Under the pieces are notes generated by a model. The model did no database searches. It was not told where the DNA came from and saw only the letters and a list, made by a program, of their open reading frames with translations. Positions 10,762 to 56,184 of a stretch of DNA of 64,000 bases are shown piece by piece; positions within the stretch are counted from its first letter, which is position 1; every line of letters begins with the position of its first letter. Source of the DNA: Verrucomicrobiota bacterium (GTDB lineage: Bacteria > Verrucomicrobiota > Verrucomicrobiia > Limisphaerales > UBA8199); NCBI GenBank assembly GCA_050011195.1, contig JBEKJO010000001.1, forward strand, positions 6,640 through 70,639, written 5' to 3'. Made by a program: the position numbers and the translations under genes.

Positions 10762-11481
10762 TTATTTCAGTACTTTTGCGAGAATATCCTTAACAAACTG
10801 AGGAATTTCCAAACCCGATTTTGCGGCGTCCGCTTTCAACCGGTCATATTGCGCAACTTCCTCGCCCTGCCACACAAGATCAATTCTCCGGATTTGGCGC
10901 ATCGCCACATGATTATACTTTTCGGGGTAAGCCCAATAGCACGACAGGCAAATGTTTTTGTCTCTAATGCTTTTCCAATTCTCGCAGTGTTCGCACGACC
11001 AGGATTTCGCGCGATTCGCCGAACCGCAGAGCAGCATAAAGTCGTCTATCTTGAGTTCGTCGCTTTCTCCGGCCACCTCGTAGGGGACACGATGGTCAAT
11101 CTGCAAGTTTGGCTCATCCATTTTTTCCAGGTAGATAAAGCACTGGCATCCATATTCCTCGATGAGTTGTTCTTTGATTTTCTTGGAGAGGCCTGTGCGG
11201 CCGCTAAACCGCCGGAATTGTTTCTTGGTCGGGTCGGCAAACCGGTAGGCGGCGATCTTGCGACCATTGGCGGCGGCGACGCGAAAAGTTTCGAGCTGAA
11301 TGCCGAGCTCCCTGACATCCCGTGCCGCCCGTGGTGGATGATCGTAGCCGTATTTGGTCTTCAACTCTTCCGTTGTGACGTGGCCGTGCTTGAGAATGTG
11401 ATCAATCACCGTCTTCGGGCGCTTGCCGGTGACGGAGGCGCACAGTTCAAGAAACTCTTTTGGGTGTTTTGGCTTTGCCAT
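10762..11481 (-). CDS. HNH (beta-beta-alpha-Me) nuclease, probable type II restriction endonuclease
   Basis: CQC...IDHRVPYEVAGE...LLCGSANRAKSWSCEHCENW...CLSC gives an HNH core with flanking Cys pairs. It overlaps the methylase gene by 35 nt and its GC is visibly lower than the flanks. Confidence 0.65.
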   Translation of the reverse strand: MAKPKHPKEFLELCASVTGKRPKTVIDHILKHGHVTTEELKTKYGYDHPPRAARDVRELGIQLETFRVAAANGRKIAAYRFADPTKKQFRRFSGRTGLSKKIKEQLIEEYGCQCFIYLEKMDEPNLQIDHRVPYEVAGESDELKIDDFMLLCGSANRAKSWSCEHCENWKSIRDKNICLSCYWAYPEKYNHVAMRQIRRIDLVWQGEEVAQYDRLKADAAKSGLEIPQFVKDILAKVLK

Positions 11482-12397
11482 AAGGAACGGGTTTTTCCAT
11501 CAATTGCATCTGCTCGTCCCGCCGGTGGCGGTGCACCGTTGGCAGAACTTCCAACTCCTCCGCCAGCGCCGGCGAAAGATATAAAGATTCCACTGTCATT
11601 TCGTCCCGACCCAGCAAGGTGGCCTGCGAAGAACGCCCAGCCTCGATTTCCACCAGCGTCAAATGCAGCTTCGCCGGCAACGGTCTGCCGTAGCTGCGAT
11701 TTCCCAGACGCCCGTCGTAACTCACAAGGTATCGGACATTTTTCAAATTCAGCACCGCGAGTTGCGCCACGAAGTCGTCGAACGCGATCCCGGAGAAATA
11801 CCGCGAGTCGCGTTCCCCGCAAACCCCTTGATACGGCGGGTCCATATAGACCACATCATCCTCGCGCACATTCGCCAGCACATTTTCGTAGCTCAACGAG
11901 GTGATGATGGTTTTCCCGCGCAACAATGCTGAAATGGCGTTGAGGTTTGCCTGCATTGTTTCCGGCTGCGTTCCCAGACGGCGCTTATCGGGACTTTGAT
12001 TGAACAACCCTTCCCCGTTGTAGCGCACCGCGCCCTTCACGCAGCGGGCCAGCAGATACAAAAGCAACTGCGCATCCTGCGTGCGATTGAACGACTCGCG
12101 CACCTGATAATAATGCTCCAGCGCATCCTCGTGGTCGGCGCGCCAGAGTTCTTTGTAAAACTTCCCAAGCTCTTTCGGGCTGTTGACGATCAAAGATAAC
12201 AACTTTGCCAGCGGCGCGTTAACATCGTTCAGCCAGAATTCCTTCGCCCGCCCGCGCGCCGCCGCGGCGATGGACAGGGCGGCGGAACCGCAGAACGGCT
12301 CGACCAGCCGAATGGTGCTCGCGGGAAGATATTGCAGAATCAACGAAGCCAGCGCCCGCTTGCTGCCTTGATATTGGAATGGCTGGGGAACGGTCAT
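11447..12397 (-). CDS. Dam-family (D12 class) N6-adenine DNA methyltransferase
   Basis: FQYQGSKRAL N-terminal motif, VEPFCGSAAL (motif I) and VVYMDPPYQGV (DPPY, motif IV). Confidence 0.85.
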   Translation of the reverse strand: MTVPQPFQYQGSKRALASLILQYLPASTIRLVEPFCGSAALSIAAAARGRAKEFWLNDVNAPLAKLLSLIVNSPKELGKFYKELWRADHEDALEHYYQVRESFNRTQDAQLLLYLLARCVKGAVRYNGEGLFNQSPDKRRLGTQPETMQANLNAISALLRGKTIITSLSYENVLANVREDDVVYMDPPYQGVCGERDSRYFSGIAFDDFVAQLAVLNLKNVRYLVSYDGRLGNRSYGRPLPAKLHLTLVEIEAGRSSQATLLGRDEMTVESLYLSPALAEELEVLPTVHRHRRDEQMQLMEKPVPYGKAKTPKRVS

Positions 12398-51666: not shown

Positions 51667-51803
51667 CGTTTCAATCCGCACCCCTGGATGGGGGTGAGCG
51701 CTTTCTATTATAGGCGCGCGCATCTTCGGGGCAAGGCGGAAGGGCGCGCCTGCCCGCTTGTCACGGGCTTGCGCTGGTGGCACGGCACCGGTATGTTAAT
51801 CGC

Positions 51804-51989
51804 ATGACTCAAGCGGTTGCCCAGATTCTCAGCGAGGTGGAGCGGCTCTCCCGCGCTGAGCAGAGGGAATTGCGCCAGCGCCTCTGTGAGCGCGTGCCGA
51901 TGTCCGAGGATCTGACCGACGAGGACTTTGCGGCGTTGGCCGCGGCTTCCTTCCGCGCACTGGACCAGGAGGAGGCCGCTGGTGCCTGA
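51804..51989 (+). CDS. putative antitoxin (addiction-module component-like)
   Basis: MTQAVAQILSEVERLSRAEQRELRQRLCE.... The stop TGA (51987..51989) overlaps the GTG start of the MazF-like gene. Confidence 0.5.
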   Translation: MTQAVAQILSEVERLSRAEQRELRQRLCERVPMSEDLTDEDFAALAAASFRALDQEEAAGA

Positions 51990-52299
51990 GCGGGGCGAGG
52001 TGTGGCAGGTGGACTTTGGCGTCACACAGAAGGTTCGCCCGGCATTGGTCATCAGCGCGCCCTACGAGGACACGGACCGTGCGTTGATCGGGGTCATTCC
52101 GCACACGACCGCCGTGCGCGGTTCACAGTTCGAGGTTTCCATTCCCGTCCCCTGGCTTTCCCGAGGCGCGTTCCTGGTTCAGGGGATGCAGGCCGTTCCT
52201 CCCCATTATTTTTTGCGGCGTCTCGGCAAACTCACCGCGGAGCAACTGCAATTGGTGGAACAGGCGCTGCTCCGCTGGGTGGCGATCGCCCCCAAGTAG
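51982..52299 (+). CDS. MazF/PemK-family toxin (mRNA interferase)
   Basis: PERGEVWQVDFGVTQKVRPALVISAP...VIPHTTAVRGSQFEV shows the typical PemK pattern. The GTG at 51982 is in frame with track ORF 51928. Confidence 0.7.
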   Translation: MPERGEVWQVDFGVTQKVRPALVISAPYEDTDRALIGVIPHTTAVRGSQFEVSIPVPWLSRGAFLVQGMQAVPPHYFLRRLGKLTAEQLQLVEQALLRWVAIAPK

Positions 52300-52365
52300 T
52301 GCCGGTGCCCAAGCCGGCGAATGCCGCACCCCGCCTCGCGGCAAGACGGAAGGGCATTGCAGAAC

Positions 52366-52392
52366 CACGAAATACACGAAACACACGAAACA
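52366..52392. repeat. 9-bp unit CACGAAAYA x3
   Basis: cacgaaatacacgaaacacacgaaaca, downstream of the MazF-like gene. Confidence 0.8.
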
Positions 52393-52645
52393 CCGGCCGA
52401 ACCGCGGGTAAAAGTGCGGACAAAAGTTGTAATCCTGCATTGACGCGTTTGGATTCCCTCCCTAAGCTTCAAGCGAGTGAAAATGAAACCCGGAATGAAT
52501 TCCACGGTTGCCGGTTATAGTCCGGTTTCCACGGGGTTTTTCCGGTGTAAATAGTAGTTTGGCCCTTGACTGCCTGTTCCAAAAATGTCGAGGATTTGTA
52601 GTGGAGACGAAGCGCACCACGCCATAGTTTACGTGAATTACTTGC

Positions 52646-53683
52646 ATGAACCAAAATCGATACAGAAGCTTCTTCCACGACGTCTCGGAGATCGTCACTC
52701 TTTACGTGGGGCTGTTGGCCCTGATAGGGCTTCTTGCTTCGGTTGGATTTTTTAAGCTCCGCGTTGAGCCAACCCTAAAAATGTTAGACCCTGTGTACAT
52801 CTTCGACATGCCGCAGCTCATCAGAGCCTTCAACAGCTACGCGCAAGGCTCACCATTGCCGCAGGAGTGGCGCGCGGTATCAAACGGATTTGCAGTGTTC
52901 CGTAAGCCGTATGGCAAGGACTTGGCTGGCGGAAGGCTCGTCTCGTCTGCGATGGTACCATTTCAAGACGTAACTGGCCCCGGACCAACCAACTTTCCAA
53001 GCTGGGCTCACCCATCCGACCCGCAAACCCTTTTTTACCACTTAGGTTTGACGAACGCTCCTGCTACGTATAGCGCAACCCATCCAAACTTTTCGGTACG
53101 GCGCACCGATGATGAGAAGCGATACGGAGTAGACATGGGGATCATCATGGACTACGTCCGCCTGGCTGTCGCAAAAGGCGGCACGCCGCCGGATCATGTC
53201 AATGAGAATCCACTCGACAGATTGCAGGCAGTTGTTCCTCACAAAGACGCTCCCCAGGTGGGAGATATGTTCCAGATGGACCCCATAAGCGAAGCGACTC
53301 TACCTTACTCCATCGCCTCGATCGGAAACCTCTCCTCAGAACCCATCGAGAATGTCAGAGTGAGCGTTGCCAGTTCCATTTGGTCTGCCCCGGTCGAACT
53401 GGTCGGCTGGAGCGATTTACCACAACTTGCGGACGCCACACAGAAGGGCCACAATCATCATATAACAATCGAGCGGCTGGAACCGGGACAGAGCATCGAA
53501 ATCGTCTTTCGTGGGCATAAGCTGCTGCGCGCGAACGAAGTGTCCGTTGTCTGCTCCTGGATTTTTGATAAGACAAAAATCGCAGTGTTGATGGCCCTTA
53601 TACTCGTCTTGACCATTGCGGTCTATTACGGAGACATTCTTTCTCTGAAGTTTTCCCGCTTAGTGGGTTCTCGAAAGGACTAG
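52646..53683 (+). CDS. orphan protein with N- and C-terminal TM helices, unknown function
   Basis: 345 aa in a distinctly lower-GC stretch. TM helices at ~aa 17-36 and ~310-330. No motif recognised. Confidence 0.5.
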   Translation: MNQNRYRSFFHDVSEIVTLYVGLLALIGLLASVGFFKLRVEPTLKMLDPVYIFDMPQLIRAFNSYAQGSPLPQEWRAVSNGFAVFRKPYGKDLAGGRLVSSAMVPFQDVTGPGPTNFPSWAHPSDPQTLFYHLGLTNAPATYSATHPNFSVRRTDDEKRYGVDMGIIMDYVRLAVAKGGTPPDHVNENPLDRLQAVVPHKDAPQVGDMFQMDPISEATLPYSIASIGNLSSEPIENVRVSVASSIWSAPVELVGWSDLPQLADATQKGHNHHITIERLEPGQSIEIVFRGHKLLRANEVSVVCSWIFDKTKIAVLMALILVLTIAVYYGDILSLKFSRLVGSRKD

Positions 53684-53989
53684 AAGTTGTCTGGACATCT
53701 GAACTATCGCGCTGCACTGGATGCTGGGTGTCCATCCCTGATTGCGGTCGGGAGCCTTTGGCTCAGCGCGAGCGAACGCCTGCCTTGGCTTCGAGATCGT
53801 CATGGGCAACCGCCGATTCAACGCGCTTAAGGGCTTCGACCTCGGTCAAGGGCTTGGGTTGTTGCTCGGCGAACTTCTGCAGTTCGTCGAGGCAGGCCCC
53901 ATCCCCTACCCTGCGCGTCGGTTGACGGTGGCGCACAGAATCCGGCTTTTCGCGAGTCAGATTTGCGGATGGCGAGTGCGGGGGCCGTA

Positions 53990-54014
53990 AGCCGGTTTGG
54001 AAACCGGCGCTCCG
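53990..54014. repeat. family C solo arm
   Basis: gccggtttggaaaccggcgctccgg. No partner arm seen nearby. Confidence 0.7.
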
Positions 54015-54134
54015 GCCCGCGGGTGTGAAATATACGGGTTGGGTCGTCGGCGGGCAGGCGGAGGGGGCGGAGGAACGCGGTGGTGGCTCCAGGGCGGCAC
54101 CGGAGCAATCCCGGAGCCCCTCTGTAGCCATACC

Positions 54135-54309
54135 GTCGTTTCAGGCATCTTTGAGGCACGTTTCAAGCTTGTTTCAGGCATGTTTGACGCATGTTTCAAG
54201 CTTGTTTCAGGCATGTTTGACGCATGTTTCAAGCTTGTTTCAGGCATGTTTGAGGCATGTCTCAGGCATGCTTCAGGCACGTTTGAGGCATGTTCCAGGG
54301 ATGTTTGAG
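54135..54309. repeat. 11-bp tandem array, ~16 units (33-bp higher-order unit)
   Basis: Units follow GCATGTTTSAG. The 33-mer gcatgtttgacgcatgtttcaagcttgtttcag is repeated perfectly twice (54178..54243), with diverged copies on both sides. Confidence 0.9.
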
Positions 54310-54505
54310 GTTTCCCCCAATCCTTTCTGCCTCAATGTCCCCAAGCCAAGCACCCGACGGTCGCGGGGACGCTCCCCCTGGCGTTCGGTCCCCGGGCCGG
54401 GCACCGGTAGCGTCCAGCCATCGAGCGGCGGGGGCGCTCCCGAATTGTCCGCGCATACTGTACAGATTCCGAGAGATTTGTCAAGGAGTAAGTTGAGCGA
54501 AGGAA

Positions 54506-54527
54506 GAATGCAGAATGCAGAATGCAG
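54506..54527. repeat. heptamer GAATGCA x3
   Basis: gaatgcagaatgcagaatgcag. Confidence 0.85.
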
Positions 54528-54592
54528 AAAGTAAAGGCGACAAGGGCGCCTGGAACGACCCGGGGGCGATGATCGTGCCGTGAGTGAGGGAT

Positions 54593-54726
54593 AAATCCGA
54601 AAACCGAAATCCGAAATCCGAAGGAAACCCGAAGTCCGAAATCCGAAATCAAGACCGTCTCGGGATTGCAATGGCCCGTCAGAAGCGGTCGGTTTCGGAT
54701 TTCGGCATTCGGGCTTCGGATTTCCG
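54593..54726. repeat. inverted arrays of ~8-bp TCCGAAAT-type units forming a long hairpin
   Basis: Left arm aaatccgaaaaccgaaatccgaaatccgaaggaaacccgaagtccgaaatccgaaatc. Right arm ggtttcggatttcggcattcgggcttcggatttccg. Confidence 0.85.
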
Positions 54727-54783
54727 CAGCACCCCTCATTTTCTTCTCGCCTTGCGGGGCGGGTTGTGGCGTCATACAGGGCC

Positions 54784-56184
54784 ATGAACAAATCTGCTCT
54801 CGATTCAGGAATCAGCCGACGCCATTTTCTCGCCACCGCCGGGTTGGCGTTGGCCGCTCCAACCATCATCCCCGCCAGCGCTTTGGGCCGGGAAGACAAG
54901 CCCGCGCCCTCGGAGCGCATCACGTTGGGGGTGGTCGGCTGGGGCATGCAAGGCCCCGGGAACACGGAGGCGTTTCTGGGGATGAAGGATTGCCAGGTGG
55001 TCGCCGCCTGCGATTTGGACCAGCACCACCTCCAGCAGGCGCTGGACAAGATCAACGGCCATTACGAGAACCGGGACTGCAAGTCCTGCCACGATTACCG
55101 GGAGATAATGGCGCGCAAGGACATTGATGCCGTGATGCTGGCGGTGCCGGATCATTGGCATGAGCTGACCGCCGTCGAGGCGGCCAGGAACAAGAAGGAC
55201 ATTTACGCCGAGAAACCGCTCGCCCGCACGATTGCCGAACAGCAGGCCATCGTCAAAGCCGTCCAGAAGAACAAGCGCATCTGGCAGACCGGGTCGTGGC
55301 AGCGGTCGGAGGGGTCGTTCCGCAAGGCGGCGGAGATTGTGCGCAACGGGCTGATCGGGAAAGTCACGCGCGTTGAGGTGGGTTTGCCGGGCTACCACCA
55401 TGACTTCGCCGGGACCGCCCCTGCCCTGCTGGCGAAGTTGCCGAATTCGCCAAAGAATTCCGAGTATCTGGCCAAGGTCGTGCCCGGCAGCCCGGAATGG
55501 AAGATAGCAGTTACGCCTCCCGCGCCTGAGCTGGATTACGAGATGTGGCTTGGTCCTTCGCAAAAGGAGCCTTACATCCAGGCCCGGGTGCACATGAACT
55601 GGCGTTGGAATTACAACACCGGCGGCGGCCAGTTGCTGGACTGGATTGGCCATCACGGCGACATCGCCCACTGGGGGCTGGGATTCGACAACGCCGGCCC
55701 GTCGGAGATCGAAGGGCAGGGCGAGTTTCCGCCCGCCGATGCCGTGTGGAACACCTGCACCAAGTACCGCATCACCCTGAAGTACCCCGAGGACATCACC
55801 ATGATCATCGCGGGCGGACATGGGGACATTCGCAGCGGCACGAAATGGATCGGCACCGAGGGCTGGGTGTGGGTGGACCGGGGCGGGTATGATGCCTCGA
55901 ATATTGACTGGTTTGCGCAAATCCCCGCCGACAAGTACAAGGTGAAGCTTTACAGATCGCCGGGCCACCAGCGCGACTTCCTCGACTGTGTGAAGTCCCG
56001 CCAGCCGACGATTACGCCGGTGGAGACGGCGCACCATTCGGCGATTCCCGGGCACCTCGGCCTCATCTCGATGCTGGTCGGGCGGAAGATCAAATGGGAC
56101 GCGACCAAGGAAGTCATTGTGGGCGATGCCGACGCGAGCAAACTGCTGACGCGCCCATACCGCGCGCCGTGGAAGCTGGCGTGA
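54784..56184 (+). CDS. Gfo/Idh/MocA-family oxidoreductase with Tat signal
   Basis: MNKSALDSGISRRHFLATAGLALAAP, then the Rossmann segment LGVVGWGMQG. Confidence 0.85.
   Translation: MNKSALDSGISRRHFLATAGLALAAPTIIPASALGREDKPAPSERITLGVVGWGMQGPGNTEAFLGMKDCQVVAACDLDQHHLQQALDKINGHYENRDCKSCHDYREIMARKDIDAVMLAVPDHWHELTAVEAARNKKDIYAEKPLARTIAEQQAIVKAVQKNKRIWQTGSWQRSEGSFRKAAEIVRNGLIGKVTRVEVGLPGYHHDFAGTAPALLAKLPNSPKNSEYLAKVVPGSPEWKIAVTPPAPELDYEMWLGPSQKEPYIQARVHMNWRWNYNTGGGQLLDWIGHHGDIAHWGLGFDNAGPSEIEGQGEFPPADAVWNTCTKYRITLKYPEDITMIIAGGHGDIRSGTKWIGTEGWVWVDRGGYDASNIDWFAQIPADKYKVKLYRSPGHQRDFLDCVKSRQPTITPVETAHHSAIPGHLGLISMLVGRKIKWDATKEVIVGDADASKLLTRPYRAPWKLA

Follow-up and report, generated by a model that had tools for sequence, protein, structure and literature searches.

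The feature studied here lies in the window (the whole stretch of 64,000 nucleotides that was analysed) within a gap of 1100 bp between a 345-aa gene (52646-53683) and a Gfo/Idh/MocA oxidoreductase gene starting at 54784. The 345-aa gene has a GC content of 0.53-0.55 vs. 0.61 for the genome and is without a Pfam match, and a PemK/MazF-type toxin gene (51928-52299) is situated further left of the array. The setting thus corresponds to the original prediction, which had described a 1.1-kb gene-free stretch beside a low-GC orphan gene and a toxin-antitoxin pair. No replication genes were found among the neighbours. In the congener G003, the seryl-tRNA synthetase and oxidoreductase genes are separated by 244 bp as compared to 3069 bp at the window locus, thus indicating that the toxin-antitoxin pair, the gene without a Pfam match and the repeat unit described below form a variable islet. 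This islet lies between the two genes (51668-54737, ~2.8 kb missing in G003) and comprises the PemK/MazF-type toxin gene with a small gene upstream, the lower-GC 345-aa gene, a minus-strand ORF and the repeat unit. The ORF (53763-53921, 52-57 aa) is called as a gene in JGI assemblies.

The array itself (array 1, 54138..54310) repeats the 11-bp unit GTTTSAGGCAT 15.7 times, and a 33-bp higher order is superimposed. Tandem Repeats Finder reported for 54138-54306/54310 the periods 11 (15.4 copies), 22 (7.9 copies) and 33 (4.8 copies, 91% matches), and together with a reading of the sequence this showed that the 11-bp units and the 33-bp higher-order repeat proposed originally are real. The 33-mers at 54178-54210 and 54211-54243 are identical, as had been noted, and the perfect period-33 tract is longer (54160-54253); the CATG sites in 54135-54309, counted before as at least eight, number exactly eight. 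The statement that all six frames stay open across the array did not hold: only + frame 2 and - frame 3 are stop-free, of the remaining four, one is interrupted by a single stop at its end and the others by 4-5 stops each. In the predicted RNA, which corresponds to the minus strand, each unit reads CCUSAAACAUG. Folding of the + strand of the window array gives a ~85-bp hairpin (-86 kcal/mol, z -9.7) vs. -40 kcal/mol for the - strand; we considered strand-biased folding as a general property and dropped it, since the + strand was the more stable one in just 10 of 23 loci. The strong + strand hairpin is a peculiarity of the unit variant in the window copy.

Comparison with other copies in the same genome showed that the array forms the expandable core of a dispersed, promoter-bearing unit, of which the window has a “solo” copy, i.e., one without a gene. 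The original prediction missed both the conserved promoter reading into the array and the gene family linked to it. The whole unit (family A, ~550 bp, 53956..54502, minus strand) was delimited by homology to its closest paralogue, C1:4511-5038, with which it shares 85% identity over 553 bp, and homology with all other copies begins ~20 nt upstream of the -35 hexamer. The promoter is of the sigma-70 type (54457..54484, minus strand), with TTGACA at 54484-54479, a 16-nt spacer and TACAGT at 54462-54457; it matches the consensus at 10 of 12 positions and is directed leftwards into the array, with transcription predicted to start near 54450 on the minus strand. Among 23 aligned copies the promoter is the best-conserved part and is always directed into the array. 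Its invariant bases comprise the TTG in the -35 hexamer and two T in the -10 hexamer. The same layout was found in 36 metagenome loci, and every subfamily retains the geometry, either with TTGACA-N16-TAAACT or with TTGCCA-N16-TATCTT.

The promoter is followed by ~140 nt of GC-rich hairpin modules, then by array 1, array 2 and a short conserved tail. The modules make up the 5′ domain of the predicted RNA (54311..54450, minus strand), and some of them are optional among copies. This domain includes one copy (54356-54379) of a REP-like motif, GGCTCGCGGGGACGCTCGCCCT, which occurs 191 times in the genome when up to 5 mismatches are permitted, often as inverted pairs 40-50 bp apart and sometimes in 39-40-bp tandem arrays (8 copies on C217). 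Array 2 (54098..54137) is a degenerate second 11-bp series, CACCGGAGCAA-like, with the family consensus AGCAnnnCCrT; one copy of the congener G004 has an expanded form of it with 7 units. Further on, a conserved motif GGAGGAACGCGGTGGTGG (54068..54087, minus strand), kept in the G004 copies too, would read CGCGUUCCUCC in the predicted RNA; this is similar to an anti-Shine-Dalgarno sequence and may have a function of that kind. A separate hairpin repeat (~53966-54020), of which the genome has 14-17 copies, often in inverted pairs, is centred on a palindrome, CCGGTTTGGAAACCGG (53992..54007), close to the 3′ limit of the unit.

Several short repeats adjoin the promoter on its other side. Heptamer arrays are present in the window at 54505-54529 (AGAATGC x3.6), 54593-54650 and 54689-54724, and AAATCCG x8.7 with the inverse TCGGATT x5.3 can form a long imperfect hairpin just upstream of the unit promoter. 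The same hairpin lies upstream of the orthologous oxidoreductase gene in G002 and G003, both of which lack the 11-bp unit, and it therefore predates the insertion of the unit. Short tandem repeats directly upstream of the -35 hexamer were seen in several other copies too.

We then looked for properties of known RNAs in the unit. A consensus fold computed with RNAalifold on 23 copies contained three uninformative pairs only, and a scan of 51.5-56.5 kb against Rfam 15 gave as its best hit a plant microRNA model with 30.6 bits vs. a gathering threshold of 69. Intrinsic terminators after the array were predicted in 9 of 27 copies in the sense direction vs. 10 of 27 in the antisense control, so that no consistent terminator follows the array. 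A small ORF behind a GGAGGAA motif was rejected because its start codon is not conserved. Sponge RNAs of the CsrB/RsmZ type carry many GGA motifs in hairpin loops of the transcribed strand; some copies have CAAGGAUG on the + strand, which is not the promoter-driven one, the GGA is not conserved, and CCUSAAACAUG on the promoter-driven strand is without GGA, so that the idea of a CsrA sponge was abandoned.

The assembly of the window's own genome (G000; 309 contigs, 6.47 Mb), a Limisphaerales MAG to judge by the named MAGs with the most similar seryl-tRNA synthetase genes, was searched at the DNA level, and related arrays were found on many contigs, with flanking sequence conserved on both sides. 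A profile of the right flank gave ~27 copies of the unit, each with 3-16 adjacent 11-bp units, so that an array which the original prediction had implied to be unique turned out to be one of at least 27. Tandem Repeats Finder applied to the whole genome, with overlapping rows merged, showed that period 11 is preferred: there are 41 arrays of period 11 vs. 1, 10 and 2 arrays of periods 10, 12 and 13, respectively, and the 11-bp register is thus real and selected. Period-7 arrays are commoner still (162). The units vary by copy (GTTTCAGGCAT, GTTCCAGGCAT, GTTGCAAGCCT, ATTTCAAGGAT), retaining the pattern GTTnCArGCnT with conserved positions G1, T2, T3, C5, A6 and G8; hence TTT and CATG characterise the window copy rather than the family. 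The numbers of units do not follow multiples of three, and they differ between alleles and copies by steps of 1, 4 and 5 units, which indicates that the arrays are non-coding, as predicted; the frame that an 11-aa-repeat protein would keep across the copies is not kept.

Using a sequence model of the promoter and the first 75 nt (R1), we obtained matches in 2 of 61 related genomes, 26 in G000 and 21 in its congener G004, and none in the 59 other relatives. In G004 the layout of the copies is unchanged, array 1 comprising five units and array 2 comprising 2-7. The genes beside the 27 G000 copies are unrelated and stand in either orientation, and neither a transposase nor a regulator gene linked to the copies was found among these neighbours. 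A literature search on 11-bp intergenic arrays in Verrucomicrobia returned nothing relevant.

A second dispersed family in G000 (family B) has its own 11-bp arrays, GATGGTGGTAC-like and of 4-10 units, and its own conserved flanks, which carry GTCC-N7-GGAC palindromes; it was seen on contigs C6, C21, C36, C41, C72, C79, C100, C105, C114, C165, C181 and C280. Palindromes of the form TGTCC-N7-GGACA also stand beside other small 11-bp arrays (C34, C83, C124 and C221). At locus L170 (JGI 3300041416, locus coordinates 1-543), a public gene call of 180 aa, cut at the start of the locus, spans the local copy of the 11-bp array; this call is an annotation artefact of the kind anticipated by the “shadow ORFs” of the original prediction.

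These findings bear on the functions proposed originally, namely bent DNA with phased T tracts, a unique iteron or origin-like array, and a cluster of CATG sites for a restriction-modification system. The window units do carry TTT and CATG at an 11-bp period. Iterons and origin arrays, however, occupy one or few sites per replicon beside a replication initiator gene, whereas here ~27 dispersed copies have neighbour genes unrelated to replication. A-tract bent DNA has helix-phased A/T tracts of 4-6 bp that are conserved across members, whereas the T tracts here are just 3 bases long, 43% of 206 units have a T at position 4, and a T tract is missing altogether from many arrays of the family. CATG is absent from many members as well, and its observed/expected ratio in the genome, 0.83, is no notable depletion, being similar to that of other palindromes. 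Since neither TTT nor CATG is conserved in the family, A-tract bending or a CATG cluster is not its shared function, and we regard this whole group of readings as very improbable. The original observation is partly confirmed and its interpretation partly supported. As to the putative restriction-modification genes, the methyltransferase gene (11447-12397, minus strand) encodes a D12-class N6-adenine DNA methyltransferase and adjoins a 239-aa ORF (10762-11481, minus strand) for which a Pfam search found no match. Among the palindromes, CATG and GATC (0.79) are mildly low, and CTAG (0.36) and GTAC (0.57) strongly low.

Comparison of G000 with G004 revealed orthologous sites at which just one of the two genomes carries the unit, G000 in some cases and G004 in others. 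The equivalent of the C38 site of G000 is empty in G004, G001 and G002, and two G004 copies have no counterpart at the sites on C12 and C18 of G000. One of these two G004 copies has GCCGGC..AGGG at both ends and, in addition, a possible target duplication of ~12 bp; at the other sites compared, the flanking intergenic DNA was too diverged for such a comparison, and no terminal inverted repeats or target duplications were seen in the G000 copies.

The original prediction had raised the possibility that unit number differs between strains, and variation was indeed found. Among seven independent assemblies of the window locus, the only differences over 4.4 kb are two single-base changes and a 33-bp length difference in the array. 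The array is 173 bp long in four of them (the window and three from JGI) and 140 bp in the other three (ENA), where an assembler collapse is possible. The difference corresponds to a three-unit segment (54160..54192) that is missing in the ENA assemblies. At the C17b locus, three assemblies with flanks 99-100% identical have 8.7, 12.7 and 13.7 units, and the internal unit variants differ between the alleles; the four-unit array of the C84 locus is invariant in six assemblies. The arrays are usable as strain markers, and at the same time they are a hazard for assembly and gene calling, the gene call mentioned above being a case in point.

The dispersal of the copies would be readily explained by a selfish mosaic repeat of the BOX, BIME or MITE kind, non-autonomous and modular, which spreads in intergenic DNA, drifts in length by slippage and has no function of its own. 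The optional hairpin modules with their REP-like motif, the patchy presence in 2 of 61 genomes, the occupied and empty sites with a possible target duplication, and the arbitrary neighbours all agree with it, and longer arrays vary more, as described for pneumococcal boxB (PMC3049150). A repeat of this kind accounts for the spread, but not for the near-obligate, strand-specific linkage to one gene family, nor for a five-unit array conserved above synonymous sites with its unit order kept across diverged loci, both described below. The promoter geometry conserved in every subfamily, the absence of terminal inverted repeats in the G000 copies and the failure to find a transposase among their neighbours also speak against it, and we consider this explanation quite unlikely.

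Four of the ~27 G000 copies face the 3′ end of paralogous genes for a 214-aa protein, P0001, and the same pairing occurs in one islet copy of G004 and at two loci of other organisms (L172 and L179). A scan of metagenome contigs for P0001 relatives yielded 80 loci, of which R1 matched 43, in every case (43/43) on the strand opposite to the gene and 115-400 nt past its stop codon. Among informative loci, i.e., those in which the gene end was complete and was followed by 450 nt or more of sequence, the proportion was 41 of 51. At the linked loci, arrays 2 and 1 fill the space between the stop codon and the convergent promoter. The ancestral form of the unit is apparently arranged tail-to-tail with a P0001-family gene, and its strand-specific linkage to this one gene family is near-obligate.

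Array 1 of the linked loci has five distinct units in a fixed order. Over 17 linked loci its identity is 89% (~87% without the 11-nt anchor used to locate it), as compared to 77% for third codon positions of the gene and 71% for adjacent non-coding DNA in the same loci, which argues that the five-unit array is under purifying selection. The long G000 arrays are derived expansions; each unit type found at gene-linked copies recurs in solo copies of the same genome.

The P0001 proteins are 214-222 aa long (reference gene G000 C70:1060-1704), and searches of Pfam and PHROG revealed no domain match. The AlphaFold model (pLDDT 84) combines a helical bundle and a beta-sandwich with an N-terminal arm that is poorly ordered, basic (arginine/lysine-rich) and of low confidence, and a fold search gave weak FN3-like matches only (E about 0.01). 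Genomes of this genus contain 15-42 copies each; in a sample of 201 genomes from across the order, 3 had the family, G000 among them. Other P0001 paralogues are followed by tandem arrays of period 7, 9, 10 or 11 bp. We also considered P0001 as a type II toxin, but a RelB-like gene lies upstream in one locus only, and as a serine recombinase with an invariant Ser10, for which neither the predicted fold nor Pfam gave support.

As a DNA element, the array could be bound head-to-tail at its GTTnCA units, every 11 bp and on one face of the helix, by P0001 or by a direct-repeat regulator (e.g., a response regulator of the OmpR/PhoB type), and the resulting filament would block or tune both the output of the convergent promoter and read-through coming from the gene. 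Direct repeats of the TGTT type, spaced by 11 bp, make up the PhoP and ArcA boxes, and ParR binds the 11-bp repeats of parC on plasmid R1. Such binding would fit the strict 11-bp register kept in two adjacent arrays with different units, the preference of the genome for period 11 over its neighbours, the six conserved unit positions, and the arrays of period 7, 9, 10 and 11 behind other P0001 paralogues, as if each were cognate to its protein. On the other hand, the P0001 model has no recognisable DNA-binding fold, its best matches being FN3-like; no regulator gene linked to the copies was found; and the conserved promoter reading into the array in solo copies would be left without a role. We hold protein binding to the DNA to be rather unlikely, although it explains the strict 11-bp phasing better than antisense pairing does.

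The reading that we favour, tentatively and at slightly less than even confidence, is that the window array represents an antisense-RNA unit that lacks the gene and pairs, by way of its repeats, with 3′UTRs of the P0001 gene family. The minus-strand promoter would make a C/A-rich repeat RNA of ~300-500 nt, antisense to the repeat-bearing 3′UTR of the P0001-family mRNA. At the linked loci this RNA would act in cis, like type I toxin-antitoxin systems with 3′-overlapping converging transcripts. Solo copies may act in trans on the 3′UTRs of paralogues with the same unit type, because repeats provide complementarity that is independent of register; ~21 nt (TGTTTCAGGCATGTTTGACGC) are common to the window array and the array behind the C70 P0001 gene. 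Replication slippage would alter the number of units and hence the possible length of pairing.

A number of results argue for the antisense reading: the ~27 copies, each with 3-16 units beside a conserved flank; the conserved promoter that is always directed into the array (23 copies and 36 metagenome loci); the strand-specific gene linkage (41 of 51 informative metagenome loci); the five-unit array at 89% identity vs. 77% for third codon positions; the repeat number that varies between strains with near-identical flanks; the orthologous sites of G000 and G004 occupied and empty in both directions; and the recurrence in solo copies of the unit types of gene-linked ones. Moreover, convergent RNA pairs overlapping at their 3′ ends, in one case pairing via direct repeats, are an established mechanism (PMC4147584). 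The same reading is weakened by the inconsistent terminators downstream (9 of 27 vs. 10 of 27 in the control), by the lack of conserved secondary structure and of a consistent strand bias in folding among the copies, and by P0001 itself, a soluble-looking protein of 214 aa unlike a small membrane toxin. Furthermore, most copies are solo with arbitrary neighbours, and a selfish repeat would look alike, while plain antisense pairing would not obviously require a strict 11-bp phasing.

Taken together, the results point to an undescribed antisense-RNA or repeat-binding module rather than to a replication origin or bent DNA. A broader proposal, which we put forward as doubtful, is that P0001 and the convergent 11-nt-repeat RNA form an undescribed two-component module of a selfish or defence type, present with 15-42 gene copies per genome in one Limisphaerales genus. 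The protein would be controlled by multivalent antisense pairing with its repeat-bearing 3′UTR, by direct sequestration, or by both, and the gene-less copies would be trans-acting “immunity” RNAs whose strength is tuned by repeat number. If true, this would be a new form of RNA-protein gene pair, controlled via short slipping tandem units, where the slipping unit number would serve as a simple means of tuning dosage or specificity. Some of the short repeats that are so unusually dense in these soil/peat Verrucomicrobia would thereby receive a function. The work also draws attention to a large unannotated protein family that is limited to one genus and always has tandem arrays behind its genes.

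Among known systems, the unit has much in common with type I toxin-antitoxin loci. The toxin of such loci is a small toxic peptide, usually membrane-active. As in txpA/RatA, bsrG/SR4 and par of pAD1, the gene here faces a separately promoted RNA, predicted in our case, and shares with it the DNA between the stop codon and the promoter, all 43 metagenome matches being on the opposite strand; in par, RNA I and RNA II pair through the direct repeats DRa and DRb (PMC4147584). Both the type I loci and the present unit are multi-copy and often reside in variable or mobile regions. In contrast to type I loci, the linked protein is not a small hydrophobic peptide but has 214-222 aa, with a helical bundle and a beta-sandwich in its model, the shared region consists of two expanding and contracting arrays of 11-nt tandem units, and most copies have lost the gene.

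Type III systems resemble the unit in that a tandem-repeat non-coding RNA (predicted here) of variable repeat number is tied to one protein family. Their arrays (ToxI, antiQ, CptI and TenpI) have units of 34-36 nt or more, vary in repeat number, and precede the toxin gene on its own strand, a Rho-independent terminator standing between the two (PMC5086642). By analogy, the repeat RNA could bind and neutralise P0001 directly, with one or a few units per monomer, and solo copies would add further RNA. The genetic linkage of a predicted tandem-repeat RNA to one protein family is in line with such sequestration, as are the arginine/lysine-rich N-terminal arm of P0001 and the tolerance of known type III antitoxins to changes in repeat number (PMC5086642). 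However, the units here are of 11 nt as compared to at least 34-36 nt (PMC5086642), the array lies downstream of the gene under a convergent promoter, and P0001 has no match to endoribonucleases of the ToxN/AbiQ type, nor to CptN or TenpN, the Pfam and PHROG searches being negative and the folds weakly FN3-like. Sequestration of this type thus fails in two defining features, orientation and toxin fold, and we consider it improbable.

The boxB sub-unit of the BOX elements of Streptococcus pneumoniae is 45 bp long vs. 11 bp for the sub-unit described here. Like BOX, BIME and Correia elements, our unit is dispersed, intergenic and modular, with an internal tandem sub-unit whose number differs between strains; BOX elements (boxA-boxB(n)-boxC) can affect neighbouring transcription (PMC3049150). 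Unlike them, it has a complete conserved promoter reading through the array, a strand-specific linkage to one gene family and a high GC content. With ParR-parC and the PhoP/ArcA boxes it shares direct repeats, the exact 11-bp register and a TGTT-type core; it differs from them in having 3-16 units in ~27 dispersed copies, in the position of the arrays downstream of the promoter rather than around or upstream of it, and in that no linked partition or regulator gene was found. There is no support for the iteron, bent-DNA and restriction-site readings, and the feature appears to belong to an undescribed gene-plus-repeat-RNA module.
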